From positions 1 through 56,353 of the forward strand of contig QPGO01000319.1 of the NCBI GenBank assembly GCA_008632985.1: a DNA stretch of 56,353 bases, read 5' to 3'. Each line of letters starts with the position of its first letter. Within the stretch, counting starts at the first letter, position 1. Position numbers and translations under genes: made by a program. Source of the stretch: Psammoneis japonica. Its lineage: Eukaryota. Shown piece by piece: positions 947 through 32,069 of this stretch. Below the pieces are notes generated by a model. It did not search any database. It saw only the letters and a program-made list of their open reading frames with translations, and had not been told where the DNA came from.

Positions 947-1297
947 TTTCGGAGACGTCATGGTCGACTTGATGCAGGTGTCATGCCGCAGGAAATAAAA
1001 AATGACTTACTCTTCCTCTCGACTCACCGTCCGTGTGCCGTCAGGAAGAGGATTCGGGATTGAGTCGACTGAATCAATGGTGACGGTTGAGTCGTGCACA
1101 TGATTCAGTTCGAAAACTTACATAGAACGTAGTACAAAAGCTACATACGTTGGACAATACCACACAAAACCGTACACGAAAAGTGATCGTTGGATTTCGC
1201 AAAAATCACAATCGACTTTTGTTGTTGTTGTTGTTACCCACTGCTCGAGTCTGTTGTTGTTGTTGCTATTACAGTATTGCTATTGACGTTCACCACC

Positions 1298-3769
1298 ATG
1301 CCACCCAAACGCAAGAGTGACTCTATCACAGAGTCATCGTCTACCGCCGACAAGACGAAAAAGAAAATGACAGCGGCACAGAAGAAAGCGATACAGGACC
1401 GTGTTGCTGCTGATTTTGCAAAAGGAAAAACGTCGTCTCCTGAAGCAAGTCGTCCGACAAAGCGTCGCCGTACCACGCCCACTCGAAAGACTACGACGAC
1501 GACGACACGGGCTACTAGTACAAGAAATACTCCTTCACGTTCTACCCAAAAGTCTCTACCGGCTAGTACTACCGCGACGAAGACGCCCACTACGTCGTCC
1601 AACAACAAGGCGAAGAAAAAGTCGAAGAAGGAGCAGCTTGCCGAGGCACAGGCTCGTGCTGCAGAGTGGGCCAAGAAGATGAAGATTACTACACAAGACG
1701 AGGAGGAGGACGTTATCATGAGCGAAGAAGAGGAGGAAGACGACGACGAGGATATGACGGAGCAGGACGTCTCTGAAGAAGAAGAGGAGCAAGTCGAAAT
1801 CAAGGCGAAGAAGTCTAAAAAGGAACAGCGTGCCGAGGCACAGGCTCGTGCTACAGAGTGGGCCGCGAAGCGACAGAGTACCACACGAGTCAATGTTGAG
1901 GATGTTATCATGAGCGAAGAAGAGGAGGAAGACGACGAGGAGGAGGATATGACTGAACAGAACAGCGAGAGGCAGAACAGTATCTTTCAACAAGAGCTTA
2001 CCGAGGGACAGAATGTCTTTTTGAACACGGTTCAACCTGTAGCGAAAAGGACCAAGTCTTCTTCTACCGTTAGGAGGAGGAGACCGCGGAAGAGCCGCGA
2101 CGATGTTGCCGGTTTCAACCAAGAGGCAAGGGCTGCTGGGCTTCAAGGGCCAACTGCTCCCACGGCGGATTTCAATTCCACCGGGCTATCTCACTTATCT
2201 CCTCCAGCCGCTGCGATGAGAGAGGCTCGTGGTGCCGACGGGCAATCCCTGTACTATCCTCCAGCCGCCGCTACTGGAGAGGCTGTCCGTCCCTCTGCTC
2301 AGCAGCCACCTGTACAGCATCCAGCTTATGCATATTACCAAGCCCCTGTGAATTCTCCTACTCTTGTGCGCAATCCACAGGCTCCTTATCAAGCCATGAT
2401 GCACTCACCTCCTCATGCAATCATGTTTGGTGATCACGCGCGCGCATATCAGCAGGCAGTATCCCCTGCAGCCATCGCAGAGCGAATCAAGCAGCAGGAA
2501 CGGGAAGCCCGTGAGGCTCAGATGCGTTTTGAGAACCAGGTTCAGCAAGACCGTCTCCAGAACCCGGTCCCGCAAGCAGCCGATTTTGGCGAGGAAGCAA
2601 CTGATCGCCAGCACTCGGTCGTGAGCGAAGACGAGGAAGAACACGAAGAAGTGGTACCGCTCAAGCGAAAGATGAAGGCGTTTTGGGATGCGGCGCGTTA
2701 TGCGATGGCCGTTGTTTGTCTTCTTGTAGTATACGACCTTCTTGTAGGCAACGAGACCTCCACCCGCGCTTCCTTGAGTAAGAATGCACCTCCATGCTTT
2801 GAGCCTACACCCGGATATGAAGACCCAAACATTGAAACGCCGCCATGGCTTTTGGATAAAGGAATCAACGCTTGTGCTCCCGGTCGCGACAAAGAACGAG
2901 TCCCATGTCCAGAGGGCGGAATCTGTAGCAACGGCTTTCTTCTCCACTGCCAGGATAGCCAATTCATGGAGCCTGATCCTTGGGGTACCAAGTGCAACCT
3001 GAACAGTGATGCGGTCACCACACTATCTGCCATCAAGGATACCTTGATGAATCTCACCGTGCAATACACCTGTGACTTGGGGTGCCAGCTCCCCGTGAAG
3101 AAGTGTCCAGTTTCGCCAGCCAAAGTCGATAAGGACAAGGTTCCTTCGTTTGCCATGCGAGATATCCAAAAGCGGGTTGATGTTGACTTGAATTCGCCGC
3201 TTCTAGCTTTGAACCACTCTTTGTTTCAACTCGATACCGAGCTCCAACTGATTCGATTGACTCGCGAAACTATAACCAAGGAGTTGAAAGTTCCGCTTTC
3301 GTGCATGATCTTGCACTTTGCTAAGGACTCGGGTATGATGGGTTGGAGCGGCATCTGTAGTTTGGCGAAAGTTCTTTTCGACTGGGCAGTGAAGGATCCA
3401 CTCATTGCAGTATCAGTTGCTGTGTTTGTCATGTTGGTTCTTCACGTTGCAATGGCTCGTATCCGCCATAGGAAGTTTCGCAACGAAGTTGATAGGGTCC
3501 GTGACTTGGCCTGTGCCAGGCTACAAGAACAAGGTAGACCCACGGTGGTGTTGATGTTGCGTGACATGGTGGCAAACGAATTGTATCCTCGGTCCAGGAA
3601 GGAGCGTCGCTACGTCACGAATACGATTTGGAGGCAGGTTGTTGTGGAAGTGAAACGAGACCATCGTATTCACAATTTCACGCAAATTGGTGAAGACGGG
3701 AGCCAACAAGACGTTTGGCAGTGGGTAGCGCCCTTGACGCCTTTGCAGAATAGCAAGAAGGAGAACTAA
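1298..3769 (+). CDS. Man1/Src1 (LEM2/Heh1-like) inner nuclear membrane protein
   Basis: Single long ORF from MPPKRK. Basic/acidic disordered N-terminus, TM helix (YAMAVVCLLVVYDLL), Cys-rich lumenal domain (PCPEGGICSNG), second TM, and a C-terminal MSC-like domain ending in VWQWV. Confidence 0.75.
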   Translation: MPPKRKSDSITESSSTADKTKKKMTAAQKKAIQDRVAADFAKGKTSSPEASRPTKRRRTTPTRKTTTTTTRATSTRNTPSRSTQKSLPASTTATKTPTTSSNNKAKKKSKKEQLAEAQARAAEWAKKMKITTQDEEEDVIMSEEEEEDDDEDMTEQDVSEEEEEQVEIKAKKSKKEQRAEAQARATEWAAKRQSTTRVNVEDVIMSEEEEEDDEEEDMTEQNSERQNSIFQQELTEGQNVFLNTVQPVAKRTKSSSTVRRRRPRKSRDDVAGFNQEARAAGLQGPTAPTADFNSTGLSHLSPPAAAMREARGADGQSLYYPPAAATGEAVRPSAQQPPVQHPAYAYYQAPVNSPTLVRNPQAPYQAMMHSPPHAIMFGDHARAYQQAVSPAAIAERIKQQEREAREAQMRFENQVQQDRLQNPVPQAADFGEEATDRQHSVVSEDEEEHEEVVPLKRKMKAFWDAARYAMAVVCLLVVYDLLVGNETSTRASLSKNAPPCFEPTPGYEDPNIETPPWLLDKGINACAPGRDKERVPCPEGGICSNGFLLHCQDSQFMEPDPWGTKCNLNSDAVTTLSAIKDTLMNLTVQYTCDLGCQLPVKKCPVSPAKVDKDKVPSFAMRDIQKRVDVDLNSPLLALNHSLFQLDTELQLIRLTRETITKELKVPLSCMILHFAKDSGMMGWSGICSLAKVLFDWAVKDPLIAVSVAVFVMLVLHVAMARIRHRKFRNEVDRVRDLACARLQEQGRPTVVLMLRDMVANELYPRSRKERRYVTNTIWRQVVVEVKRDHRIHNFTQIGEDGSQQDVWQWVAPLTPLQNSKKEN
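1606..1960 (+). repeat. Internal coding duplication (~2 x 55-60 aa) in the Man1/Src1-like gene
   Basis: KAKK(K)SKKEQ(L/R)AEAQARA(A/T)EWA...EDVIMSEEEEEDD(D/E)EDMTEQ occurs twice with near-identical DNA. Confidence 0.85.
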
Positions 3770-5019
3770 CGATGATTCGGGTTAGACCTGGATCACGTGG
3801 TGTTTTTCATTCTGGTAACGAGAGGGAATCCTTGTTTGTGTGGAACAATCATTTAGCCTTTCTCTCTAACAATAGTGTATAACGTATAGTAGCTTTTCTA
3901 ATCAAATCAATATGGCACTCCATTGCTGTAATCTCTAAAATAGCGCTTGTTCGGCAAGTCGTAAATCTCTTCCGACAGAAGTGTCGCCTGTGTCGCTGCC
4001 CACATCTTTCGACCGTACTAAATGTAACAGTTTCATGTTGCAGTCCAACCGAGTTTTGATTTGTTGCTCCTACCAGATACTCGTAGATCTAGAGGGGAAA
4101 AGAACAGGTGTGCTCTCGAGATAGATAGGGCCCTAGAGTATCATGATGTTGTGTTTTTTGGTGCATGTCATAAATAGCTAGTTAACCGTTTCCTCCCGAG
4201 TGACTACAAATGACTACATTTTGTATTTAATTTTTAGATTTTACGTATACAAGCATGTAGTCATTATTCAAAGATATATTTCTTACATGAACAATTTCGT
4301 ATTGAAGCATGTCCAAATTAAATACGAAACGATAGTGCCTAGTGTAGGGCGGTAGACACATCAGATGTAGATGCAGGGTCATGCCATTAGTGTTGAACAG
4401 TAGCGTTAGGACCTAATTGATCCTACGGAATAGCCCATGGCTATGGAAGGCACCTATTTTGACAGAAGTTAAATAGGGGCAAAGTCATCGCTAAAATTGG
4501 TCCTCTACGTAGAGCTCCGTATAAGTTTGTCTGTCCATCGCCAGTTCGCGCCAACATTTATTTAGGGGAATGAACGAGTAGGCTAGTGTCTGCATCCTAA
4601 GTGATCAATCATCGCAGACGAAGCAACAATGTCTGCTCGCTCCACCTGTAGAGCAATATGAGACAACCACCAAGCACATAACAGCTCGTAGACACAGTCA
4701 TTGAAGAGACTTACTAATTAAATAGGAGATTTATACGTATATAAAAGCACAAATTTCTTATGTGATTTTAGATTTTTATTTCCATTGAATACAAAAAACA
4801 CGTTCGGGAGGAAACTGTTAACGTAGTACGAGACGACAATTGTTTGGAATTTTTTCTGGTGTGATTTCTACACGTTTCTACACAAAGCGATGGTCGCACT
4901 TCGGCTTGTCCCAGGACGCTATCAAATGCTGCGTTTCCTTCAACCAAGTGTCCTGCATTCTTAATTAATTGGTGTCTCCTTGACTTGCCCATGGAAAGAA
5001 ACTGCAAGTTTCGAGATTA

Positions 5020-7180
5020 TGTCAACAAGACATTCCTGTTGGCAAAAAAAAGGTCCTGTTTTTTCGCCCCAAGTTTTTGAACCAGATGCTTGGATGGGAA
5101 AAAGTGTCGAAAGGAGCAGTTTCTTTCACTCGGCAGGAAGCCAAGACAGTGGAGAAAGTGTCTGCATGCTTGAATTCACAAGTGTTTTCGTCTTGGAAGT
5201 GCTTTTCATGGCCTTTCCAAGACGATGTAGAGAACGAGGCGACAAATGAGCGACCGCCAAAACGGAGTTTCCGTTGAGCAACACACTTGCAATCACGCGC
5301 ATGCCGACCCATGTGATTCGCCAATGAGACACAGTGCTTTTGTCTGATGATAAATTCCTGATTCCCGTGATTTTCAATGAAAATGCACGGGGATGGAAAC
5401 GATTTTCACAATTTTCGTCTCGCGCCACCTCATCAAGGTGGCACGGGCACAAAAGTGGGCCAGATTCTGCACACGCAGAGCTTGGCATGTTTTCCACACA
5501 AATCGCCAAAGTCGGCTCGCCAACTTGAGCCCTCTCCAGGATGATGGAAACTGGAACATTTCACATGACAAAGTGTTTCGACTGCTCAGCTGCACTCCCC
5601 TCGACTTGTTTGTGAAGAGAAGTTGCAAGTTTCCATGGGTTTCTCATTTTGTGCAGCTCTTTAAAACTCGAACATCACGATTTCAGCACCTTTCTGATTA
5701 GATTCGTTGTGTGTCCTCAGAAACCTGTGAAAGCTTGCAATTTCTCTCCCCAAACAAGTTGAGGAGAGTGCAACCAAGCAGTCGAAGCACTTTGTTGTGT
5801 GAAATGTCCAAGTTTCCATCGTCCTGGAGAGGGTTCAAGTTGGCGAGCCGACTTTGGTGATTTGTGTAGAAAACATGCCAAGCTCTACGTGCGTAGAATC
5901 TGGCCCACTTTTGCACCCGTGCCACCTCAAAAGGGCGGTCCAGAGATCGCCTGGTGCACTTTTTACATGGAAACTGCCAGAGAGCCAATCACGCACATTC
6001 CCACACAGACGCAGCACAAAACAGAAAGCATGGCACTCCATCACGTGACCCTCACGACAACACCACCTGATGACAATGCATCAAAAATGGCGTCGTCCGC
6101 ATCTTTCTGCAGCTCCTCTTTCACTCACCCGATTGCTCCAAAAGGGCCAGGGAAAGCCAGTGAGCTTTCTCTCATGACAGAGCAATGCAAACAAAAGTTG
6201 TTTTTTATTCCAAAATCTCAGAATGCAGTGCACCCGATTGTCAAGGCGAACTGGCACGTTGGCAGTGACAACACCAGTTGATGTTCACTCTAGAACAACA
6301 ATGGAGACGTGACACCCCAACAAAACAAAGTCTGTGCCCCCATGATGAATTTTAAAGCTGGTTCTTCTTGTTGGCATGCAATCTTTAGCTGCTTTTTAGA
6401 CTTGACAAAATGATCATCTGCCCCGGCTGTCACCCTCTAAGTTTGTTGCATTGGCTGACAAATTGGGCAAGTGAGCCACACATTTCCAGCTTGTGAACTG
6501 CCTTGCAGCCAAAAGAAGCAATCTAAACCTTCAGAACAGCCATGATGCACTGGTCTGCCGAATCAAACTCCACATCACCAAGTGGAGGCGGGGAGAACCA
6601 TTGTCAAAAATGCGCTGTGACGGATCTGAGCTCTTGAGAGCTTGTCCAGCTTTTGACGCCATGGCCCCAAATCACCATGTTCACTGTGAAGTCAGCCTGA
6701 TGCTGTGTCTGTGACTTTGCCTCATTTTGGAATTGCCACGGCCATCGCATTGCAGAACTGACATTCTTGACGAGGAAAAGTGTTTCTGGGATGCCTTGCG
6801 ACGACGGAGACCCTGCAGAACAAAAGAACAATGTAGAAAGAGACAACACATGCAAGTCAAACGGGTGTCAATGCACAAAGCCTCAACGAAACACACAGCA
6901 CAAATGGTGACACATGAGGTCGGTTGTGATGCAACAGAAGCGACGCTGTCAGCGCGAACTTTCAGTGAGAATTTTCACCATCAGCTGCCCATGTGAACCT
7001 GTGTGCTCTCAAGCTTGTCACATGCCTCATGCTGTGACGCAAGACATTCCGTTGAGAGTACACTGCAAAGCACCTCAGAAACAACCGCATTTTTGAAATC
7101 GGTGAAACGCCATTGTCCGTGTCATTTTGCGTCGCGAGCCAGAAAAAAACTCCCAAAAACTGTTCTGCAGGGCAAAATGT
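5020..7180. other. TpA-depleted island 1 with decayed ORF relics flanking the inverted repeat
   Basis: Only ~18 TA in ~2.15 kb by eye. ORFs are Cys/His-rich and almost Tyr-free. Confidence 0.7.
5436..5927. repeat. Long inverted repeat: 209-bp arms (5436-5644 / 5719-5927) with a 74-bp spacer
   Basis: aggtggcacgggcacaaaagtgggccagattc...gggtttct is the approximate reverse complement of agaaacc...tggcccacttttgcacccgtgccacct. The ORF track shows paired translations on opposite strands (RAQKWARFCTRRAWHVFHTNRQ vs RVQKWARFYARRAWHVFYTNHQ). Confidence 0.92.
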
Positions 7181-7705
7181 ACTGAATCTACACAGATTTG
7201 GGTTGTACCAGGCCACGTAGAAAATGAACGGGCCGAGAACTGTGGTACGCCCACTTAAGTAGTGCCGACTTTGCCTTGAAGTACGGCACGGCCGCCAAAC
7301 ATCGAAATATTGTGAGGAGCGAACAGTCGGCTTGCGAACAGACGTCGTCCCCCAATGATCCATTATCATACTACCTAAAAAGCGATACTAAAAAATTGAG
7401 ACATTAATATTCTGTATAAAATAGATAAAAATTTATTTAGAGCAGACGTGTTATTGGTCATTAGCTCATGAAGTAACGATAATTTTTACTTAGCGTTCGC
7501 TATTTTTTTCTGCTCATTGAACGATACTATCAAATTTCGGAGACGAATCACTGTAGAACCAATACCAGCGCCTACGGTGATCTCTGTTGGGGGTGAAGCT
7601 TGTTGTGTCGTGTTGGAAGAGCGAAGCACATTCAACAAACACAACATGAAGCGAAGACTGAGACTTGCGCAACTAAAGAACAGATAATAACGTACCGCCC
7701 ACATT

Positions 7706-8535
7706 ATGTTCATGATGAGTAGTTCTCCACCTGTGCATCATGAGGTCGCTGATCGAGATGAGAATGAGACTGGTACGAAACGCTTGGATGTGATTGACGC
7801 AAATCACGAACGAAAAAGTACCGTTCGGTTTGCTCCTTCTTGTCAAGTGTTGGAGTATGTTGCTCCACTTGATGAAATGTCGGCGACCGAAAGGGCCGCT
7901 ATTTGGTGGCAAGAAGAGGATTATTATGCATTCAAAGCAACAGCTCGTCAGATTTGTCGAGAGTCGAGACAGCGACGAGATGATCGACTGCTTCTTGGAT
8001 TGGACCAATCATTCAACAACACTCGTCGATTCATAACAACCGAGAACGACAATACTTCACTCGACCAAGTATCTGCTGATGCGGTAAGTCGGGTTTTTGT
8101 GCGAGAGAAAGTCATGATAAATAAAGACGAGTTCATTTTTTGCTAATTCCGTCCTTGTTTCGTTCACAGGGCTTGATTCAATACTGTACACATGCTCATT
8201 CGCGTCGAGGCTTGGAGCGATGGATTTCTAAACTACACGGTCAAGTTCGCAGTCAAGCCGCATCTAAAAACATCCAAACGGTCGTTCAACACTCCGCGGT
8301 ACTGCCAGAAGAGGAGCTGAGCATTCTGGCCCAGGAGCAATCCTTTTTGGCTCGTGTGTTCGCACGTCAAGTTGGTGATGCGGACGCTCTGGCTGTGAAA
8401 TCTCCACCCAAATACAATAGAATGGACTATCTCAAAACAAGACACCAGTTGGCGCAACGGTGTCAAGCTACCCTTCGAACGAATGCTGCAGCCGCGCAGC
8501 AAAATCTCGAGCCGCTTTCGTTGAGAGGACGTTAG
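7706..8535 (+). CDS. Diatom-type hypothetical protein ('VRF...W...RGLE' family), 2 exons
   Basis: Exon 1 7706-8083, GT-AG intron 8084-8169, exon 2 8170-8535 in frame. Motifs TVRFA, AIWWQEEDY, SRRGLERW. Confidence 0.75.
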
Positions 8536-10345
8536 AGTACAATCGTGTTGTTCCTTTTTTATGCAAGTGACACTGCACTTTGCTATATTAGATCTTATTT
8601 TGTTACTAGATAGAAGAGACTTCAAATGTCACTCTGCCGCTACAAATTGATTCTAGCTAGCTCTCTAGTAGCTAGTAGAGCAAAGGACTTACCACCGCAC
8701 GACGCACGACTGACAAATTTTGACATAGACTCACGATGGAGAGTGGAGATCTACCGGCACCGGTGTCGCGAGACTGATTCGCCGCCGCCGCGTCCCGCGT
8801 CCTGGTCCCCACGTCCCCGCCCCCCCCCCCCCCCCCCCGGCAACACAACAAAACCTCAGTCCCATTCTTTCAACGACGTTTGAGTGCAAGCTTGACGCCG
8901 TTTTGTGCTCATTGCATTTGACAAGTCTCCTGCAGTTGCAATGAGGGAATTGCACTGGTTGCAAGATGTGTTTGCCGAAACGAACCCGAGCGAGGTCGAC
9001 AGCATCTGCATCTTGGCTGAAGAAATTGATGTCAAAGGCATCAAGCAATTGAGCCATTTTCTTCCCTCCTTTTGCAAATCAACAAACTTTCATTTGATTG
9101 CTTGTGCCACTGGTTCAGAGGGAATGGACTGTTTGTCTCGAGCCCTTTGGTCACTCCTCCCAAAGCTGTGTGTGCTTGATCCAACAAGATTGGGGATGAT
9201 GGCATCAAGCATTTGTTGAAAGTCATCCCTTTTCTTTTTCGGTTGGAGAAACTTGTGCTCAACCACAATGGCGTTGGCCCTGAGGGTGCAAAGTCCTTGT
9301 GCAAAGTGCTTGAACAGAGTGCAGAAATCGAGAGCATCGACCTCACAGGAAACTCAATCGGAGATGAAGGTGCAGAATGTCTTGGTGAGAGCTGTTGACA
9401 AAACATTGCAAACTGACAGGTTTTGTGCCTTGCTGGTTGTTGCGTTGGGCAAAAGAGAGACAAAACATTGGCCAGGAGTGTGAAAGAAAGCACATTCATT
9501 GACAGTCTTTGTCTTGATGACAATGACATTGGAGATGGTGGTGCAAGAGCCCTTGGACAAATGCTTGGGCAAAACAACAAAATCACATTTGTGGTTGTGT
9601 TGTGTGCCTCTTTTGGAGAAAAGGGGGACAGCTTGAATGTCACAATGTCATTCCCTGCATTTTGTGGCATGACACTGGCGAGGATCAAGTGTCTGAGATT
9701 GAAAGGGACCAGGAGAGATGTTGTGGGACATTTTGCAGTTGCTGCATCATGATTGGATTTCTGATGGCATTTGGGCCAAGGTGTTGGCATGGGTTGGCCA
9801 CAACCCCAACCTTCTTTTCCATGCAGTCAAGGCCAAACTGGATGTTGTCAAGAAAAGGATGTTGCTTTGTTCGCGTGGCAGCATGAGCCATGCATTGGTT
9901 CCAAATTTAAGGAGTGTGGGGGGGTGCACATGAGATGCATCCATCAACGTCACTTGGTGTTCATCGCATGTTTGCTGATCACCCAGAACAATCTTGCACA
10001 ATGCACTGTGTGTCTTTTGGCTTCAACCAAAGACCACTCTTTGTGCAGCGGAGGCATTGTCCCTGCTTGCCTGTTTGCAGTGTCTGGCAACCGACTGATG
10101 CTCTGTTCTTCCACACAAACCATCCATTGCAGTCACTCCCTTTCTTCAATCCACCAACAATGCTGCCTCTTCTGCAAATGCAGTTGAAATGCCTTTGCAC
10201 ATCTAAAGTGCAAAGGCACTTGCCAGGACACTGCAGTGCAGCTTCAATCAGACTCCACAAGTGCAGGCCATTGTTTGACCATGACGACACGGTTGCACAC
10301 TGGCACAACCTCTAGACTGACCAACACAGTCCTGCAAACAGATGC
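8255..10345 (+). repeat. Segmental duplication copy A (3' end of the 7706 gene + LRR gene + downstream DNA)
   Basis: Colinear with 14733-16875 (shared gccagaagaggagctgagc, gcacgactgacaaattt, gaggatcaagtgtctgagattgaaagggaccaggag, gaccatgacgac). Confidence 0.9.
8850..9930 (+). pseudogene. RNI-like leucine-rich-repeat pseudogene, copy A
   Basis: Frameshifted fragments LEKLVLNHNGVGPEGAKSLC, IDLTGNSIGDEGAECLG, LCLDDNDIGDGGARALG, and the C-terminal IWAKVLA...NLLF motif. Contains stops and no Tyr. Confidence 0.88.
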
Positions 10346-10399
10346 GTCATCTTCTCGTCATGGTCTTTGAATGAGCAAATCAAAGTTGCAAGTCAGACC

Positions 10400-12200
10400 A
10401 CATGTCAATGTTCCCTGATCTCTCACATGATGAGCCCAGCTCATGAAACACCCCCAGCTCTTTCTCATGTGCATGGATCCACTGCAAAATCCCTCACCAG
10501 AAGGGTCTCCTCCTCAACACCCACGTGCCAGTTTGGTCGCGCAGACTGAGACAGACTTCGTCTCTCTGCCTGTGGTGCACGCCAACACACCATCAGAAAA
10601 ATGAGGCTCATGATGACAAAAAGAGGCCCACATCTCTCTTGCAGCAAATGCCAATCTGCAAGCATTGCCACAGCATGCCACACAAGCGTGAGGGCTTGCT
10701 GTGGTCGTTGAATGGTTCTGGCAACTTGTTGCTCCCTTCCAAGTCTTCTGTCCTCTGGAGCCATTGTGCAAGGCAAAGCCCGCACATGGGACATTGCCTC
10801 CTCAACAAACATGCCTCAAAACTTGGTCATCTGTGCACTCAATCAACACACAACATGAACAACTTGACTGTTTGCACTGCACACAAACAGAACATGGTTG
10901 ACAAGAGCCAATGGCACCGCACTTTGAGCAAGCTGTGCACAATGTTCAGGAGTCCACAAACAAGCACCTTCCTTGTGGAAACATCACTTGCAACTGTCAT
11001 CTGCACAAAGGCCATGTTTTGGGCATGTCCAATTGCTTGCTTGATGCATCTCATGGCTTGGCTCTCAATGGTGTCTTTTGTGGCTGTTTTGCATTCACCT
11101 GCTGTCATGGATTCATCTTTGTCAATGTGCTTTTCATTGCCAAAGTCAATGTCTTCATTGCTTCCTTCTTGACTGCACTTTGCAAAATGGCAAGCATGTT
11201 GCTGCTTGGCCCCAAAACAGCACAGAATTGCATCGTTTCGTGAAACCAGGAAAGGCCACAGCATGCCAAGATGCCTGCTGATGTTTCTTTGGTTGCAAAA
11301 TCCAGCATCAAACAAACCTCTGCTCTTCAGTGGCATGTTCAGGGGCCACCAGCCATTGAAAACAACATTGTTCCAAAAGCACTTCTTGCTGCTCCCCAAA
11401 ATCCATTGAAGATCTGCTCAACCAATGTTGACTTGTTTTTTGATCATGCCAGCCCCATCTGGCCAGCTTGTTGCTTCAGCTTGGTGACTGAGTGTTTCGT
11501 CTGATCATTCTCCATCTCTTGTTTTCATGTTTTGTCACAAATGGGTTGGATGCCTGTTGCATCAAAAACTTCTAGACTTCCTTCAGATGCTCCCTGAAGT
11601 CGCCAAACTCTCTGACTTGTGCTCCTTTCTCAAAGCAGTGCTTGCAATTGCTCCTGTGATGTGCCCAACTTGCAACAAATGCCGCTCATTTCCCCTTTGC
11701 CTTTTGTTTGTGCAAGTTGATTTCTGCAAGCAGATGTGTCTCCTTTGAACCCACCATGTTTGGTTGCACCCAATTGAGTGGATTGATGATCCATGCTTCA
11801 AGGGATGTTTCAATTTGTCTGAGTGGGAGAGGGCTTCTTGAACTGGCATGGCTCTGGATGGGGTGTGCAATGTGCCAGAGTCTTGGGTTTGGTGCCAGCA
11901 TTTGTGGAATGACGATGCTTTGTTTGTGATGACAGAGTCAAGGCACAGGAGCTGAGCCACCGTCAAGTGAGAGAGCACTGAATTGGCTTGTGGGCAGCTG
12001 TGATTGTTTGATGAGGTTGTTGTGTTTGGCACAGTTTGAAGCCATTTACAACAGCATTTTGTTGTTGTGGTGCTCCTGCATTTGTTTCACAGATCCCACT
12101 CCTGTGTGGCATGAGATGGCATGTGACGGCCAGCCAGTCCCCTGGACAGTCTTCTTGGCAACACACAGACTTTGAGCATCATTTGGTTCTCTCAACAACT
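10400..12200 (-). pseudogene. Decayed ORF relic with a SAP-like helix-extension-helix motif
   Basis: Minus strand ~11495-11410 reads KHSVTKLKQQAGQMGLA*SKNKSTLVEQI, which fits the SAP consensus if CAC came from TAC and TGA from CGA. The rest is not identifiable. Confidence 0.4.
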
Positions 12201-12405
12201 TCAAAGACTTTTTGCCATGGTTTTGCAGAGCAAGCATCCAATGCAAACAGAAGCTGCAGTGTGCAGCGTGCAACTGCCATGCCGGCACGCACATTTGCAA
12301 TCACACACAACTTGTGCTGTCAATCGCGCCACAATCGTGGATGCGTGCGAAGGACAGAACGATCACACAGAGTTGATCGGAAGTCAAAAATTGCAAACAC
12401 GATCA

Positions 12406-14210
12406 ATGGATGATGTTGACATCTTGTGTGTCAGTGCCAGCTGTGTTCGGACAATCTGTTGTCATGACTGCATTCTCCGAAAGGCTTTTTGTTGTCTGCA
12501 GAAGCAAGCGCAGAAGCTCTGGGCCATTGAGGACTCATTCGGACAAACCAAAAATCACAGAGCAAAATTCAATCTCACAATTTCCACTTTTCGCACCTTG
12601 TTCTGATTTCATTTGCACTTGTTCTTCAAGCACAGTGCAAGTGCAATGTGCAGCTGCTGACAAGAGTTGGTGTGTCACGGCGACGTGTTGCAGCCTTTAA
12701 ATGTCACAAAGGGCGTGACAAAAACAACCTTTTGTCTGCATGCATGCTGCATTGCATTGCTGCAGACAACTCCCACTCGGGTTTCGAACCCCTGGCCTCC
12801 TGCCTAATGGCATCCACTGTCGAACGCGTAAAACTCTGTGCAGTTCTGCACGTTCCTTCGTACGCACCCACACTGTTTCGCCAAAACCGTGCAGTGTCAG
12901 CACACGTTAGTAAAGAGCCGCATGGACGCGTGACACATGGGGAGGAGTGCAATTTACAGCCACTGGTGAGAGCCAATGCATCACGGCGACGTGTTGCAGC
13001 CTTTAAATGTCACAAAGGGCGTGACAAAAACAACCTTTTGTCTGCATGCATGCTGCACAAGTGAGTGCTTGGCTGCTCCAATGACTTGAAACAAATTGGC
13101 TCCCCATGAGCAGTGTTTTGCAAGTGATGTGGCAGTGAGGTGGCCATGGTTGAGAGCAATGTGGTTGGTGCCTTTGAGAGACACCATTTGTTGTCCCAAC
13201 TCAGCACACATCTCGCAGAAGTGCCACAACAGTTTGCAGGAGGCTGTCTTTCTTGGTGCTCACACAAGTTGTGAGCATCATCATCACCCTGGATGTGAGC
13301 AAGATGGTGGCTGTCTCTCGCACTCTTGCTGGTCTGAAACCTTTTCGCTTTTTCTCATGCCACGCAAGCTTCACAGGGGCTGGTGCAGATGCTGTTGAAG
13401 ATCATTGTCAATTGATGGGATGGACACACCCCAGGCAGAAACACGTGTGTGAAAACTCTTTGTTCAAGGCAGGTGCTGCGCTTCTTGGCAGTGCTGCTCA
13501 TCTTCTTGCACGGGAGCACTCCAAGTGCTGGAGAGTGTGAGTCTGCTTCTGAAAGCCATTGTGGACAAGAGCCAGTGAGCACCATTTGAGTTGCTGCACA
13601 GCAAAGGTCTTCCACCATGGGGAAGGATCTTGCGGCACTTTTCATCAAAGAAGACGGCTCAAGCATTTTCCAACAGAAGGATGCAGTGGCAAGGATGCAC
13701 ACAAAATGACAAGAAAGATGCACTTCACAAGCAAACCCTTTGTCTTGGCTCAAAATCAGGGAACATTTGAGACATCAAGAGAGCTCAGCAGCTGTTGAAT
13801 GGTTGGCTGGAAGAAGCATGTGACAAGTGCTGAGACCTTTCTGAAATCAAATTGTGCAGCAGCACTGTTGCCTCTCCATTTTGTCTCAAATGAAGCAAAC
13901 AAAAGTTGGCTGCAGAGTTCCTTGTCAGAGGTGTTGTGTGTTTTGTGTTCTTGGACCAGGGTCAGCAGCAGGATTCAAACTGCATCAGCAGCCACATTGC
14001 AAATTGCACACATGGCAGAAATTGCACAACTTGCACAGGAGTCCAAGAGAATTTTGGCTCCTTTTGCCCTTGCTGTGACTGCAAAAATGACACAAAAGAG
14101 CAAAGAAAACTTCCAAAGTCAAGAGCTTGCACTGTCTCAAACAGATGCCACTGCATTGACTGACGCCAAGTTTTTGCAGACATCTCATTGTTTTGCACAT
14201 TTTTGCCTGT
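12406..14210 (+). pseudogene. Decayed ORF relic interrupted by the TRIM
   Basis: Protein-like stretches after restoring C/H to Y (MDDVDIL.VSAS.VRTI...; KMTRKM.FTSKPFVLAQNQGTFE). Family not recognised. Confidence 0.3.
12642..13057 (+). mobile_element. TRIM-like miniature LTR retroelement (416 bp)
   Basis: 110-bp LTRs 12642-12751 and 12948-13057, both TG...CA, with the last 77 bp identical. Polypurine tract ggggaggag (12939-12947) abuts the 3' LTR. 4-bp TSD caag at 12638-12641 and 13058-13061. No coding capacity. Confidence 0.85.
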
Positions 14211-14342
14211 AGTCTGTTGGGTCTTTTTGGTTTGACCCAAATCACCTGAGACACCTGCAACTTCACGTGATGTGTGAGCCACTGAATGGCTCACACTGGG
14301 AGCGGGGTCAGCTGGCCATGATGACACACAACTGTGCACCAG

Positions 14343-14730
14343 ACGCGTTCCAGGTCTAGGTGGGACCTCGTACTACTGAACTGTGACATCGACAGTTTTT
14401 TGAATCACGTCGTATGTCGCACACGTAGATTTCTACGTGATTTTTTCGACATTTTGTGTCATTTTACGGTACACTTATTGAGCGATCCGTCCAACAACTT
14501 TTGACATTTTTTGTTACAGCGCGATTCTATAATGTCTTAAGAATCGCGTAGGGCAGGCGCATTTGCAAAAACGTTGAGTGGCAAGAGGCATAATTGTACC
14601 ACAAACTTGGCAGTTTATTTGATGTTGAAGATAAATATATCCATTAATTAAATTCTCGTACTACGGAGCTCGCACGTAGAATTCTACGGGCCCAATGTCA
14701 CACGGAGTCCCACCTAGGACTGGAACCCGT
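14343..14730. mobile_element. MITE (388 bp) with 24-bp TIRs and a 3-bp CAG target-site duplication
   Basis: acgcgttccaggtctaggtgggac (14343-14366) matches the reverse complement of gtcccacctaggactggaacccgt (14707-14730) at 21/24. cag lies at 14340-14342 and 14731-14733. AT-rich non-coding interior. Confidence 0.82.
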
Positions 14731-14732
14731 CA

Positions 14733-15025
14733 GCAGCTGCATCCAAAAACATTCAAACAGTCACTCAGCACTCCACAGCAGTGCCAGAAGAGGAGCTGAG
14801 CATGCCAGCTCAAGAGCGGCCCTCTTTTTTGCTCGTGTTTTTGTGCATCAAGTTGGCAACGGAGATGCTGCTCTGGCTGTGAAATCTGAGCCCCAATCCA
14901 ATGGAACCGACCACATCAAAACAAGAGATGCCAGTTGGTGCAATGGCATCAAGCCACCCTTCAAATGAATGCTGCAGCTGCAAGGCAAAATCTTGACCCA
15001 CTTTCGTTGGCGAGAGGATGCTGGA
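14733..15025 (+). pseudogene. Mutated fragment of exon 2 of the 7706-8535 gene
   Basis: Aligns to 8255-8535 with indels, an in-frame-disrupting change, and TA/CG->TG/CA substitutions. Confidence 0.85.
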
Positions 15026-15321
15026 GAGAGAGTGGAGCCTTGTGTTGTCCCTGTTTTGTGCAAGTGATGCTGCACTTTGCTGTGCATTGGATCTTGTTTT
15101 GCAGCTGGACAGAAGAGACTTTAAATGCCACTTTGCTGCTGCAGTTGCACTCCACTGCAGGACCCACAAGACCAGCTGCTGCTGCTGCGGCTGCATGCTC
15201 TGCTGGAGAGCAGAATTGACCGGCTGGACTCTGTCAAAATCTGAGACGTGAGTGCAGTTTCTGCGTGTGCACGACTGACAAATTTCAAATTCTGACAACC
15301 ACCACATTGTCACATCCCATC

Positions 15322-16403
15322 ATGCCACAACAAACTCAACTGCCGCCAGTGGCCAGCCCCATTCTTTCACAAGTTTTGGGCAAGCTCAATGCCATTGTGT
15401 GCTTGTTGCATTTGACACGTCTCCTGTGGTTGCAAAACGAGGGAAATGTGAGCCGGTTGCAAGATGTGTTGGCCATGACGAAGCCAAGCGAAGTTGATTG
15501 CTTGGAAATCTTGCACGTTGATGATGATGGTGCCAAGCAATTGAGCCAAAAACTTCCCTGCTTTTGCAAATTAACAAACCTTTGTTTGACTGGTCGCAAC
15601 CTTGATTCAGAGGGCATGAAGCATTTGTGTCGAGCCCTTTTGTCGCTCCCAAAACTGTTTGTCCTTGGGTTGCCTTGCTGCGACATTGGGGATGACGGTG
15701 CAGCGTGTTTGTCAGAAGTCATCCCTTCTCTTTTTCGGCTGAAGGAACTCTTTCTGAGCTGCAACAGCATTGGCCCTGATGGTGCAAAGTCTTCACGCAA
15801 AGCCCGGGAACAGAGTGCAGAGTTTGAATGGGTCGACCTCTCAGGAAACTCCATCGGAAATCGAGGTGCAGAATGTCTTGGCAAACTGTTGATGAAAAAT
15901 CACAAACTGACAGGTTTGAGGCTGTCAAATTGTTGTGTTGGGCAAAACGGAGCTGAAGCATTGGTCAGGAGCGTGAACGAAAGCTCATCCATTGATGCTC
16001 TTGATCTTGATGGCAACGGCATTGGAGACGGTGGTGCAAGAGCCCTCGGACAAATGCTTGCATAAAACAACACAATCGTGGATGTGCGTGTGTCGCGGTT
16101 GGTGGGGAGGCGGCCCCAGTGGATTGCGTGAAGCAAAATTTGAAGGTCAATCCCTGCCATTTGTGGTACGGCATTAGCGAGGATCAAGTGTCTGAGATTG
16201 AAAGGGACCAGGAGATGTTGCGAGACATTTTGCGGTTGTTGCGTCATGATTCGATTCCTGATGGCATTTGGGCCAAGGTGTTGGCACGGGTTAGAAACAA
16301 CCCTAACCTTCTTTACCGTGTGGTCACGGCCAAACCGGATATTTTCAAGAAATGGGACCGCGCGTTGGTTCCGAATTCGAGGAGTAGCATGGGATGTATT
16401 TGA
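15322..16403 (+). pseudogene. RNI-like LRR pseudogene, copy B
   Basis: Tyr-free ORF with LxxLxLxxNxIGxxGAxxL repeats, ending at a premature TAA (16063-16065; copy A has CAA). The unmutated C-terminal IWAKVLARV...NLLYRVVTAKPDIF follows in another frame. Confidence 0.85.
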
Positions 16404-17032
16404 GATGTATCCATCGACGTCACTTGGTGTTCAGTGTATATGTTTGTAGATTACGCGCAACAATCTAGTAAAATACACCATGTATCTTTTTGTTTCTTCT
16501 ATCAAAGCCCATTCTTCGTACGGTGGAGGTATTATCCCTACCTGTTTGTAGTCCCTCTAGTAGCTAGCTAGCTAGCAACCGATGGTCTATTCTTCCGAAC
16601 GAACCGTAATCTCCCTCGACATTACTAACTTTCTTTGCGGCTTATTGTTGTAGTCATTCTCTTGTTTGAATCCACCTCTAGTCCCAGAAACGATAAGGCC
16701 TCTTCTGGAAACGTAGTTGAAATACCTTTGCACATCAATCGTAAAGCGCAAAGGTACATACTGGTCTAGCAGGAGAGTACAATACATAGTTTCAAATAAT
16801 AGAGCTACACGTAGTATAAGCCATTATTCGACCATGACGACCTACAGTCTAACCAACAAAGTCCTACAAACAAACACACGATTTTTCACATATTTTATAC
16901 TATTGGAGTACACATTCTCGATTGTTTCTTGCATGATTGGTGCCTCCAGTTTCCCAAATCGTTCTTTACACAAAAAGAGAGTTTATGCTTTGTGCCATTG
17001 AATAAGAAACGTAGCTGCTGCAACACAAAAGC

Positions 17033-17035
<3 letters not shown>

Positions 17036-17064
<29 letters not shown>
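17036..17064. repeat. (CT)n microsatellite downstream of aureochrome
   Basis: About 14 CT units. Confidence 0.9.
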
Positions 17065-17068
<4 letters not shown>

Positions 17069-17108
17069 CCAACGATATAATAACTCTACCTCCCATTCTC
17101 CTTCTTCA

Positions 17109-18518
17109 CTACTCCTTGTTCAATCCATCCTCGCCCGCCGCTGCCGCTGCTTGTAGTCGAGCTTCATCTTCTTCTTCTTGTTTCTTGCACACATTGGCCG
17201 CATACTGATCCGACACTTTACACTGCACACCAACATAATTGGTAATGTTCCCACCGGCATCTCTCAAGGCGGCAATAAAGAATTGATTCCAAAAGGTCGT
17301 TCCATCGACACGATAATTCAATAGACACACCGACATGTCGGTTCCTTCTTCAATCGATCGACGAATCTTTTCCACCGCCTTGGGGTCCGTTTCGGGTCCT
17401 TGTAAGAAACGACAATTGCGTCCCAACACTTGATCCAAGGTGTATCCCGTGAGATTTAAAAATCCCTGTGTCGCATAGACAATGGGGTTATCGGGAAGAG
17501 ACGGATCCGTCACGACAAAGTTTTGTTGTGCCGTTTGTAATGCCTTGATGAAACTAAAATCGGGATCGTCCAATACCTTGTTGGCATCGTTGGAATTGTT
17601 GGCAATGAGTGAATTTCCAGAGGACGACGCTGCCGCGGCAGCGTGTTGTTCTAAATTGGACAAAATGCCCTCGGCAGCTTCATTGCCCAAGTGAGAACGA
17701 ACCGAGGAACGGAGTTTTTCGTTTTCTTCCTTGAGGAGTGTTACGGATTGTTGGAGGGATTCGAGAAGGAACTTTTTGCGAATGCGAGAGCGTTTGGCGT
17801 GTTCGCGGTTGCGTTCTCTGTATGTGTATAGAGAGAAAAAGAGAGGGAGTTTTATGAGGTATTCATACAAAAGCCAAATCATCACCGCCATATGCTCAAA
17901 ACAACAGCAACAATACTAATTTTCAATTTCTTCTCACCTCCGCTCTACTTTTTGTTGTTCACTCATTTTTCGTTCCGATCCACCCCTCGACGAAGTGGAT
18001 GTGGATCGTCCACCCGTCTTGCGTTTCGGACTAGGCGATGGTGCCGTGGTGGCATATTGCATATGATGACGTTGTTGCGGTGGTTGAACAAAGGGTACCG
18101 CTGGAGGTGCTGCTGTACCCACTCCTCCAGCAGTATTACTCATGACGAGTGCCGGTGCACCGGGTTTGTCGAGATTGGTAGTTTGAATACCACCAGCCAC
18201 CGCCACAGGAACAAACGGTTGTTGTTGCGTCTGTGCTGTAGTTGCAGTTTGTTCTGTAGCAGGACGACTTGCAATGGGTGCGACGTGATTGCCTTCACCA
18301 CTTTTCAAAACGCCACTCGAATTAGCCTGATCATCCATAAATACCGTTTCACCGTCGGGAGTAAAGAAACAATCTCCAAAAATATCATCGAGATTGAGAG
18401 TGGCCGGTGTTCCGCGTTGTGCTACCGCCGCGGCTGCCGATGCCGACAAGTTGGGAACATCCGAAGCAAAGACAGGAACTGGTGGTTGTTGTTGTTGCTG
18501 TTGATTGGATGATGCCAT
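17109..18518 (-). CDS. AUREO1a: Aureochrome 1a (bZIP-LOV blue-light transcription factor), 2 exons, ~429 aa
   Basis: Exon 1 18518-17938, intron 17937-17818, exon 2 17817-17109. bZIP ERRERNREHAKRSRIRKKFLLESLQ. LOV domain with GRNCRFLQG, NFVVTDPSLPDNPIVYA, FWNQFFIAALRD. Confidence 0.96.
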
Positions 18519-31816: not shown

Positions 31817-32069
31817 GATGACTGATGTTGATGATGATTTATTTGTTGTTGCCCTTGTTATTAGGTCGCGTGATCGGGTGATGTTGTGTTGCCGGCTCCG
31901 CGTAAAATGGGGATGATAGATGTTGCGTTTTGGGGGACGTCTTCGGAAGTGAGACTGTCGAAGAAAGTTACGTAGAATTTGTACTAAAACAGTCTGTCAA
32001 TCAGTGCGATTGGGTATTTGGGACCTCTGGACAGATCCTACGTGTTTTCTTGCGCGTACAAAATGTACT

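Follow-up and report, generated by a model that had tools for sequence, protein, structure and literature searches.

A TpA-depleted domain takes in opposite ends of two LRR gene copies in the diatom Psammoneis japonica

Two LRR gene copies and the DNA between them

The window analysed is the whole 56,353-nt stretch of contig QPGO01000319.1 (assembly GCA_008632985.1), the features of which are collected in Table 1. A sequence-only reading had proposed that two copies of an LRR gene, A and B, form a duplication, and local alignment bears this out: A (8252-10340) and B (14729-16872) are collinear over 2261 columns with ~55-85% identity per 100 columns, and the same pairing was seen again among the repeat families and by blastn. 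Overall likeness is only ~75%, and transversions between the copies amount to 7-12%; on their sequences, A and B are old paralogs.

Table 1. Features of the window, with positions counted from its first base
Feature	Positions	Strand	Remarks
Erased zone 1	4967-7179		X1 depth ~960-5800
LRR gene A, intact 5' part	7676-8577	+	X2 contigs match almost exactly
Copy A, far (left) end (A-left)	8252-8752	+	Intact; 25 TA and 27 CG in 501 bp
Copy A, near (right) end (A-right)	8753-10340	+	TA erased; 3 in 1588 bp
Homopolymer C tract by the left TA edge	8806-8851		X1 short-read contigs break here
Core between the copies	10341-14341		TA and CG erased
Island in the core	12675-13057		Very high contig depth; CG intact (22), TA partly kept (8)
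390-bp element with 30-nt terminal inverted repeats	14342-14731		Intact; 27 TA and 26 CG
Copy B, near (left) end (B-left)	14732-16156	+	TA erased; 3 in 1425 bp
Transition strip at the right edge	16157-16291	+	2 TA and 7 CG in 135 bp
Copy B, far (right) end (B-right)	16292-16872	+	Intact; 53 TA and 27 CG in 581 bp
Aureochrome-like gene, bZIP and PAS/LOV domains	17109-17915	-	Intact; covered by spliced X2 contigs
Serpin gene	30326-31996	-	Flanks zone 3
Erased zone 3	32067-33609		7 TA against 56.9 expected over 32000-33500
SNF2/Tudor gene	33879-39932	+	Flanks zone 3

The spliced frame of A runs from 7691 to a stop at 8534-8536. One contig of run X2 joins 7676-8082 to 8169-8345 with a single differing letter and without the GT..AG intron at 8083-8168, and another covers 8406-8577 with none differing; judged from two intron-less contigs, X2 may be cDNA. 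Such contigs, lacking canonical introns, reach 8577 in A-left and end 176 bp short of the TA edge described below. The LRR frames of A-right (8753-10340) no longer have any Pfam match, and the frame of B at 15220-16065 is still matched by Pfam LRR_6. The best matches of the aureochrome-like gene are in centric diatoms, at 88-89% identity.

Copy number was approached through the summed depth of contigs from run X1, a single DNA run with a baseline of ~50-60; this depth is a proxy and not a copy number, counting only copies at least 80% alike, such that old families less than 80% alike would look single copy. High depth within 10341-14731 is limited to 12016-13518 and 14342-14731. The former is the only old repeat in the core, with erased high-depth DNA at 12016-12674 and 13058-13518 on either side of the island, and the island has an exact repeat of ~77-85 bp in common with 12667-12751. 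The 390-bp element, which adjoins the first base of copy B, has the top contig depth of the region. It and the island appear to be young and to have arrived after most of the erasure; were mutation ongoing, their intactness would need a very recent arrival or an episodic process.

No Pfam domain was found among the 64 ORFs (at least 70 aa) of the three erased zones. The proposal that the core is an inserted transposon therefore gains no support from its ORFs, nor from its depth, much of it lying at single-copy level. It could nevertheless be an ancient, diverged transposon, because repeats less than 80% alike would look single copy.

Loss of TpA and CpG and its direction

Against a background of 3.79 TA per 100 bp in the whole window, TA density is 4.99 in A-left, 0.19 in A-right, near zero in the core outside the island, 0.21 in B-left and 9.1 in B-right. 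The stretch 8730-14341 holds 15 TA where 212.9 are expected (Poisson P = 2e-70), 14732-16160 holds 3 against 54.2 (P = 8e-20), and the domain from 8753 to ~16160-16290, excluding the 390-bp element, holds 18 against ~267. CG is reduced as well, to 109 against 332.3 expected over 8730-14341, with the strongest loss in the core (0.6-1.1 per 100 bp); in A-right it is normal to 8997 and sparse from 8998, and in B-left it is about half depleted, at 2.95 per 100 bp, and rises gradually rightward. TG and CA together increase from 14.3 to 21-24 per 100 bp in erased DNA. Both strands are affected, with 648 TG and 620 CA over 8730-14341 and no 500-bp bin significantly biased, and the zone keeps a G+C content of 0.46-0.51 throughout. 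In 19 long aureochrome loci of other organisms, used as a control, no 500-bp window was TA-erased at the strict threshold and one was at a looser threshold. The erased zone as previously described is thus confirmed in its TA loss but not in its continuity, since the elements at 14342-14731 and 12675-13057 retain TA or CG within it.

Maximum-likelihood TA edges fall at 8753 on the left (interval 8753-8793) and at 16292 on the right (interval 16157-16292), at distances of 1588 and 1560 bp (1425 bp with the edge at 16157) from the ends of 10341-14731, so that the claim of ~1.5 kb erased on each side was numerically right. The CG edges differ from these: the left one lies at 8998, and the right one is gradual. 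At all five informative edges TA loss extends farther out than CG loss, by 245, 151 and 117 bp at the three that are tightly placed. Inside the domain the change in TA is saturated and level up to a sharp edge, without decay by distance, and that in CG is graded into B. The right TA edge falls in open frames that continue the LRR-protein gene and is therefore inside that gene, as had been proposed for coding sequence; it does not lie within recognizable repeats, the last Pfam LRR_6 match having its end near 16050, 100-240 bp to the 5' side of the edge. The left boundary is unbridged among the contigs listed, because the short-read contigs break at the C tract.

Comparison of the copies gives the direction of change. 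An informative one-sided site was defined as one with TA or CG in one copy and TG or CA in the other. The copy keeping TA or CG is A at 37 of 40 such sites in the left third of the alignment and B at 50 of 54 in the right third, a switch of keeper with a Fisher p of 4e-18 for TA and CG pooled (6e-11 for TA, 3e-7 for CG). By dinucleotide, the left segment splits 16:1 for TA and 21:2 for CG in favour of A, and the right segment 32:1 and 18:3 in favour of B; inside the domain all but one of the informative TA sites have changed in each segment (16 of 17 and 32 of 33), which is near saturation. The assertion that A is kept at its far end and erased at its near end, and B the reverse, holds accordingly, and the alignment, with TA loss followed by position in each copy, has the two affected at opposite ends despite the same homology.

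Erasure affects both copies in the middle segment, and 17 aligned TG-versus-CA pairs fall there, compared with 2 for the right segment and none for the strip 16000-16250. The 17 pairs in the doubly erased segment imply independent hits in A and B after the duplication. The changes thus arose in place, on both strands and independently in the two copies. A-left holds 8 such pairs and is on that account not wholly spared, an observation that sits uneasily with the positional explanation set out below.

Among the window-versus-X1 differences listed (40 of 989), 9 of the 12 in single-copy-depth parts of the domain are of the TA/CG versus TG/CA or the TG versus CA type. A half-depth contig also has TA at 8887 and 8894, where the window has CA and TG. 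These differences are an indirect hint of recent activity.

Position, spread and pairing as explanations

The loss of TA bears no relation to contig depth. Erased bins lie at single-copy depth (60-71 over 10012-12015 and 53 over 13519-14019), and intact or CG-intact pieces lie at 68,343 (12517-13017), ~91,000-96,000 (14020-15021) and 516-899 (4000-5001); in unmutated elements summed depth exceeds 1000 times baseline. A dependence of TA loss on copy number, which the sequence-only reading had named as grounds for abandoning its view, was thus not seen by this proxy: DNA at single-copy depth is erased, and the pieces of highest depth keep TA or CG. Nor is the mutated tract coextensive with the A/B homology. 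Both results support the central claim of that reading, that the mutation is positional and not homology-triggered.

The explanation we favour, and consider reasonably probable as a whole, is that position on the chromosome, and not homology or copy number, sets the targets of the TA-erasing process. An in-place process would turn nearly every TpA into TpG or CpA in one contiguous domain, from ~8753 to 16160-16290, and nested inside it CpG would be lost to TpG or CpA, more slowly or over a narrower stretch. The domain would take in whatever DNA is present, namely the 3' two thirds of A, ~4 kb without recognizable genes and the 5' two thirds of B; the erosion is reciprocal because the right end of A and the left end of B lie inside the domain and the other ends outside. 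The targeted position may correspond to a silent or heterochromatic chromatin state, with edges that would depend on active DNA nearby rather than on a fixed distance, active genes perhaps serving as barriers. Chemically, A would change to G at TpA, whichever strand it lies on, and deamination of adenine in DNA, the mechanism proposed for Bigelowiella natans, is one candidate route; for CG, deamination of methylated CpG may be responsible. Since the CG edges differ from the TA edges, CpG loss may be a separate, superimposed process. The order of events may have been that silencing spread and then killed the genes, or that the genes died first and were then absorbed. That the evidence comes from one locus weighs against the positional explanation.

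Two further erased zones lie in the window. Zone 1 has 18 TA against 81.6 expected over 5000-7150 and a moderate deficit of CG (81 against 127.4), and inside it two arms of 209 nt each, at 5436-5644 and 5719-5927, make up an inverted repeat. The full length of zone 3, in which a CG-poor part (32218-33493) is nested, is 1.54 kb, and the zone ends ~250-270 bp from the serpin gene and from the SNF2/Tudor gene. As a general, fixed reach, ~1.5 kb therefore does not survive, a zone of that overall length having left ~250-270 bp intact beside each of two genes.

An alternative that we regard as unlikely is that a transposon between tandem copies was silenced and that the mutagenic state moved ~1.5 kb outward on each side, killing both copies. 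A spread from the core limited by distance would be expected to produce the near-equal reach of 1588 and 1560 bp, which to that extent weighs against the positional explanation. Outward movement over time would also fit CG loss that is deepest in the core and weaker in B-left, and the old, erased, high-depth repeats flanking the island could represent such a source. However, the core ORFs carry no transposon protein domain, ~2.5 kb of the core is at single-copy depth, and measured from the old repeat at 12016-13518 the reach becomes ~3.3 kb leftward and ~2.3-2.7 kb rightward. The small extent of zone 3 and the plateau with sharp edges, in place of a decay with distance, likewise do not suit a limited spread.

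Homology could instead have acted as the trigger in the manner of Neurospora repeat-linker-repeat constructs, with A-B or LRR-paralog pairing nucleating a heterochromatin-linked mutator that acted on the single-copy linker too, and on segments between nucleation points. The layout here is indeed repeat-linker-repeat with a mutated linker, and the segment erased in both copies, which is the LRR part, lies at 2-3 times baseline depth. The DIM-2 arm of Neurospora RIP moreover mutates single-copy DNA between or beside repeats, linker mutation being near zero without DIM-2, as described in the available parts of PMC11969663 and PMC4858203; the earlier expectation that RIP should hit both copies along their full length therefore stands as a contrast with RIP but not as a sharp dichotomy. 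Yet RIP, according to what is available of PMC4858203, mutates repeats over the extent of their common homology, and here the outer 500-580 bp of each copy are spared despite equal homology. The bin with the highest depth of either gene copy (16024-16524, 379), which contains the intact C-terminal region of B, is largely intact, the elements of more than 1000 times baseline depth are unmutated, and the chemistry is the reverse of that of RIP, TA being removed and not created. The 7-12% transversions count against pairing too, and they make A and B a weak test of it, because the copies may have been too diverged to pair at the time of erasure. Overall, we hold a homology trigger to be quite improbable.

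It is very unlikely, in our judgement, that the left edge reflects selection and not targeting, the domain being wider, or mutation coming in bursts, and purifying selection having removed alleles with a burst in the used 5' part of A. A-left does lie under intron-less X2 contigs, with a spliced frame open from 7691 to 8534, and the half-depth allele that differs from the window at 8887 and 8894 indicates that the edge varies between alleles. Against this, the TA-rich non-coding stretch 8537-8752 is untouched (19 TA), B-right is spared although it is the tail of a broken gene copy, and the offset of TA beyond CG at the left edge recurs at both edges of zone 3.

The least probable account, which we largely discount, is an assembly or haplotype chimera that joined intact and erased halves of A (or B) from different alleles or paralogs at a homologous point: the left TA edge (8753-8887) coincides with the C homopolymer, the whole stretch is spanned by no contig among those listed, and window and full-depth X1 contigs differ by up to ~2-3% in parts of the core, but CG density stays normal for 150 bp past the homopolymer and falls only at 8998, so that composition does not switch at the putative join, the TA-versus-CG offset resembles those of zone 3, where a homopolymer is lacking, X1 contigs of similar depth match 7288-8345 (59.9) and the A/core junction at 10050-10524 (49.9) exactly, another single X1 contig covers 16265-17028 (50.4), and the reciprocal pattern would require two independent mis-joins.

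Comparison with known mutation processes

CpG decay proceeds by deamination of 5-methylcytosine in methylated repeats. The CpG loss seen here, with its excess of TpG and CpA, resembles such decay and may be explained by it in the inner, CG-poor part of the zones, where silence is presumed; the loss of TpA, however, is beyond its reach. RIP in Leptosphaeria maculans is known to 'leak' into genes beside repeats. Host genes beside mutated DNA are mutated here also, although the chemistry is opposite, and leakage is a repeat-dependent process of a fungus.

Compared with RIP as described in the available parts of PMC11969663 and PMC4858203, the domain shares dense local transitions on both strands in a dinucleotide context and the capacity to inactivate genes. 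RIP, however, changes C to T, creates TpA and leaves an AT-rich product, whereas here TpA is removed and G+C is retained. Mutation by RIP is coextensive with homology, whereas here A-left keeps 25 TA in its 501 bp and B-right 53 in its 581 bp, although both are duplicated. RIP targets repeats, whereas here pieces at more than 1000 times depth are intact and DNA at single-copy depth is erased, with the qualifications that copy number is read from a proxy, depth, and that the process may have preceded the young elements. With respect to the chromatin state proposed above, H3K9me2, H3K9me3 and H3K27me3 in the diatom Phaeodactylum tricornutum lie mainly on transposons, most of them untranscribed, according to the accessible part of PMC4504042.

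The only published process converting TpA to TpG or CpA that we found in the literature is that of a 2026 preprint on Bigelowiella natans (Mettrop et al., bioRxiv 10.64898/2026.01.13.699255), the available part of which describes hypermutation restricted to TpA in giant-virus and virophage DNA that has become integrated. There, the giant-virus region affected is reported to be single copy, transcriptionally silent and not repeat-induced, the hypermutable region extended ~21 kb past the earlier viral annotation, and new mutations arose at a strongly raised rate in mutation-accumulation lines. The present domain is similar in that TpA becomes TpG or CpA on either strand (16:1 and 32:1) and in that the affected regions are sharply delimited and include DNA at single-copy depth, with erased bins at 53-71 on a proxy that counts copies at least 80% alike. 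On the partial account available, the two also differ. Mutations were observed arising in B. natans, whereas here there is a fossil footprint with a few allele differences; TA depletion is ~1.8-fold there and more than 10-fold here; and the B. natans process is confined to TpA, whereas CpG is also lost here (109 against 332.3 expected, one-sided at 21:2 and 18:3). The targets are viral in B. natans and, here, host LRR gene copies and DNA of no recognizable origin, and the host is a chlorarachniophyte in the one case and a diatom in the other. A rarely described kind of mutation, a process that erases TA, reaches host gene copies in a diatom.

Reciprocal erosion of two gene copies

The analysis concerns one locus; its sources are the literature, the window and a single set of public contigs. 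In the window DNA, G+C content is 48%, CpG is close to expectation and TpA is at 0.47 of expectation overall. The two copies of the LRR gene, A (8252-10340) and B (14729-16872), are collinear over 2261 alignment columns. TA density is 5-11 per 100 bp before it falls to zero at ~8753, stays near zero to ~16160-16290, and returns to 5-12. The remainder of the window predicts 212.9 TA dinucleotides for 8730-14341, where we observed 15 (Poisson P = 2e-70), together with 109 CG (332.3 expected) and 1268 TG+CA (804.9 expected). For site counts, the A/B alignment was divided at the TA edges into left, middle and right segments. At one-sided sites of the left segment, TA was kept in A 16 times and in B once, the other copy having TG or CA, and CG was kept 21 times and twice, respectively; in the right segment, TA was kept in B 32 times and in A once, and CG 18 and 3 times (Fisher tests, p = 6e-11 for TA, p = 3e-7 for CG, combined p = 4e-18). 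Reciprocal erosion of the tandem copies, as proposed in the sequence-only reading that preceded this work, is thus real and far beyond chance, and the reach of ~1.5 kb on either side of the core that it gave is numerically correct (1588 bp and 1560 bp).

Erasure (that is, stripping of TA) affects both copies in the middle segment, and 17 aligned pairs there oppose TG to CA; pairs of this type number 2 in the right segment and 0 in the strip 16000-16250. Such pairs represent one ancestral TA or CG struck independently on different strands in each copy, so erasure postdates the duplication and befell each copy separately. Transversions alone affect 7-12% of aligned A/B positions, and changes of the hypermutation type make up ~30-50% of all mismatches; judged by sequence, A and B are old copies. 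The earlier argument against RIP, that pairing should strike both copies along the whole duplicated length, is weakened, because at 7-12% transversions the copies may have been past pairing at the time of erasure; the positional conclusion is unaffected. No homology above shuffled controls was detected between the DNA upstream of A and that left of a 390-bp element preceding B, indicating that the duplication truly starts at 14729-14735. The element itself ends at the first base of B, with homology to A absent on its other side, and reflects either an insertion at the duplication junction or loss of the upstream part of B there.

The gene adjoining copy B, with bZIP and PAS/LOV domains, is aureochrome-like, its best database matches being in centric diatoms (88-89% identity). 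A metagenome scan of 80 aureochrome loci of other organisms revealed an LRR-gene neighbour in none (tblastn), so the arrangement in the window is not conserved. As a negative control, the 19 aureochrome loci longer than 4 kb contained no 500-bp window at the strict TA-erased threshold and 1 at the looser one. Metagenome scans for copy A exon 1 found no relative; gene A exon 2, sought as an outgroup for polarity, was without relatives among longer proteins; the LRR frame of copy B matched only generic LRR proteins among protein representatives; and Rfam searches over 4000-17500 gave only one sub-threshold chance match.

Edges of the erased blocks

Edges were placed as maximum-likelihood change points and are collected with the other features in the table.

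Features of the erased blocks, the intact islands and the window-versus-contig differences
Feature	Position	Observation
Main domain, left	TA edge 8753	CG edge 8998
Main domain, right	TA edge 16292 (interval 16157-16292)	CG recovery gradual from ~15400
Second erased block	32067-33609	CG-poor part nested, 32218-33493
Third erased block	4967-7179	CG loss only mild
390-bp element	14342-14731	30-nt terminal inverted repeats; 27 TA, 26 CG; intact
Island in core	12675-13057	22 CG, 8 TA
Window-versus-contig differences	8887, 8894, 9148, 10912-10913, 10919, 10943-10944, 11025	Mostly TA/CG versus TG/CA, or TG versus CA

TA loss extends beyond CG loss at all 5 informative edges, the excess at the three tightly placed ones being 245, 151 and 117 bp; this consistency implies that the two losses are separable and that the TA process has the wider domain. 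Within it the TA change forms a sharp-edged plateau, saturated at any distance from the core (16/17 and 32/33 informative sites), and does not decay with distance; the transition strip at the right edge spans only ~135-230 bp. The sequence-only reading envisaged mutation spreading ~1.5 kb each way from a silenced insertion; a constant spread of 1.5 kb as a general property is contradicted by the second erased block, which is itself 1.54 kb and leaves ~250-270 bp unerased before a serpin gene (minus strand) and an SNF2/Tudor gene (plus strand, a frame of 2017 codons). A 33-nt inverted repeat (31931-31963 / 32105-32137) spans the left edge of this block.

A C run (8806-8851), interrupted once, separates the intact half of A from the erased half, and short-read contigs break at it. 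Since the left TA edge sits at this unbridged homopolymer, a chimeric join there is formally conceivable, but CG density is normal for 150 bp beyond the homopolymer, and the offset between TA and CG edges is like both offsets of the 32-kb block, which is without a homopolymer.

Within 8753-16290, open frames of 100-280 codons are abundant on both strands, with products whose C, H, Q and W content is high, because TA removal eliminates the stops TAA and TAG and raises the share of TGN and CAN codons; such frames in erased DNA could mislead gene finders.

Copy number, intact islands and possible recent activity

No Pfam domain was found in the 64 ORFs of at least 70 aa in the three erased zones (E <= 0.001), and 18 ORFs searched at E <= 0.01 gave only two sub-threshold chance matches. 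The proposal that the core (10341-14341) is an inserted transposon was not borne out, no ORF within it having a Pfam domain. Contigs of the one DNA run covering the locus (X1) were placed on the window at 80% likeness, giving a depth of 50-70 over ordinary genes; summed contig depth is a proxy and no copy number, as it counts copies at least 80% alike, such that an ancient diverged family would seem single copy. The erased core is at ordinary depth (60-71 over 10012-12015; 53 over 13519-14019), with 12,451, 68,343 and 8,137 in the three bins spanning 12016-13518, and ~91,000-96,000 over 14020-15021. It is precisely the two pieces of greatest depth that were left unerased, namely the 390-bp element and the island in the core. 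The TA-rich stretch 4000-4966 has a depth of 516-899 and the neighbouring, erased 5002-7005 one of 959-4400, and the gene-copy bin of greatest depth (16024-16524, 379) is the tail of B, which is largely intact. TA loss tracking copy number was what the sequence-only reading had named as evidence against itself; by the depth proxy there is no tracking in either direction.

The islands and other repeats have features of their own. A 112-bp direct repeat (12640-12751 and 12946-13057) is identical over its last 77-85 bp and differs over its first 35 bp by TG/CA-type changes, implying that the boundary between erased and intact DNA crosses the left copy, at ~12675, as if a young copy had inserted into, or overwritten, an old erased family member. 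The tRNA-derived look of 12757-12945 is unsupported, a tRNA scan of 12000-13600 having found none. A tiny further run (X3) lies solely on, and assembled solely, the 390-bp element, the simplest reason being that assembly succeeded only for very abundant sequence. In the third erased block, an inverted repeat (5436-5644 / 5719-5927; 209-nt arms, 88% complementary, 74-nt spacer) lies within high-depth erased DNA and could fold back on itself or give rise to double-stranded RNA. A tandem duplication (1606-1768 / 1801-1963; 166 aligned bases, 82% identity) has normal TA and CG content, so erasure is not caused by local repetition alone.

The presence of intact young elements within the domain implies that most erasure is older than them, or that the process is episodic. 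An episodic process is also suggested for B. natans, where, according to the accessible part of a preprint, hypermutation occurred in only 11 of 15 lines (10.64898/2026.01.13.699255). Comparison of the window with X1 contigs over the part of the domain at single-copy depth gave 9 of 12 positions as TA/CG versus TG/CA or TG versus CA, among 40 of 989 differences listed; a half-depth contig keeps TA at two positions just within the left edge, 8887 and 8894, which read CA and TG in the window. The latter suggests that the left edge varies between alleles, and the former, as a hint from 40 of 989 differences, that alleles or strains differ in their erasure, which would then be recent.

Another run of the same sample as X1 (X2), of unrecorded kind, behaves like cDNA. 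One of its contigs fuses 7676-8082 to 8169-8345, skipping an 86-nt GT..AG segment, and another skips a GT..AG segment of 120 nt on the minus strand, within the aureochrome gene. With its intron removed, gene A has an open frame from 7691 to a stop at 8534-8536, and near-exact X2 contigs (0-1 other letters) extend over the intact left part of A to 8577, 176 bp short of the TA edge. X2 cover at 9010-10011 and 15863-16097 has many other letters and comes from paralogs; its absence over 10012-12015 and 13018-15522 is no evidence of silence.

Targeting rule and relation to known systems

A central question for any hypermutation defence is how the genome picks the DNA to mutate. In fungal RIP the choice is made by homology; for the TpA process, the only publication so far is a 2026 preprint on an alga unrelated to this diatom. 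The locus described here adds evidence on the targeting rule and constitutes a natural experiment in which two copies of one sequence each straddle the edge of a mutated domain, with one half within it. The split copies, the abundant unmutated elements within the domain and the mutated DNA at single-copy depth argue for position, probably chromatin state, over sequence similarity. The view that targeting is positional and not homology-triggered is thus supported by both the reciprocal erosion and the depth proxy.

That half of a gene copy is changed yet collinear with its unchanged half implies change in place on chromosomal DNA. Both strands were changed (648 TG and 620 CA), with no 500-bp bin significantly biased. 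The chemistry would be an A-to-G change at TpA, e.g. by the deamination of adenine in DNA that has been proposed for B. natans, the inner CG signal may be ordinary decay of methylated CpG, and silent chromatin would define the domain. According to the available part of a report on Phaeodactylum tricornutum (PMC4504042), transposons are the main sites of H3K9me2, H3K9me3 and H3K27me3 in that diatom. Our tentative, and still rather doubtful, proposal is a diatom chromatin-coupled mutator, which may erase TpA in any DNA of a silent domain regardless of copy number or origin, extending ~120-250 bp (about one nucleosome) past the CpG-methylation footprint and halting at active genes. It would amount to an analogue of RIP that is guided by heterochromatin and has the opposite chemistry, permanently destroying engulfed DNA, including host genes; the allele differences at the edge suggest that it may still act. 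If true genome-wide, this would provide a testable rule, that TA edges are chromatin edges, would explain the loss of host genes beside silent DNA, and would make TA-poor tracts a permanent record of former silent chromatin in diatoms.

Among the alternatives, a homology-nucleated variant is kept alive by the DIM-2 arm of RIP, which, in the portions of the literature available, mutates single-copy DNA between or beside repeats (PMC11969663, PMC4858203). Limited spreading from the core, as first proposed, is not shown; its best point is the near-equal reach on the two sides, which a chromatin domain leaves unexplained. Editing of RNA followed by reverse transcription is rejected, as host gene segments and single-copy-depth DNA were altered in place, collinear with unmutated halves, as are strand-coordinated bursts, TG and CA outcomes being mixed with 0 significantly biased 500-bp bins, and, for A and B, foreign DNA of odd native composition, which is ruled out by the site-by-site change visible in the alignment.

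General and diatom-directed literature searches did not find the TpA process described in diatoms, yielding only the B. natans preprint. As far as the available part of that preprint goes (10.64898/2026.01.13.699255), it describes a TpA-to-TpG/CpA signature in sharply delimited regions, the main target being single copy and transcriptionally silent. The signature and the sharply bounded regions are, on that partial account, common to both systems, whereas erasure here is far deeper, has a nested CpG component, has struck host gene copies and comes with an internal homology control. The likeness to RIP lies in the outcome, but three tested defining features failed, namely the direction of change, the coextension of the mutated tract with homology, and the targeting of repeats. 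To the extent that its accessible descriptions allow comparison, the DIM-2 arm of RIP is the nearest functional analogue of the process at this locus.
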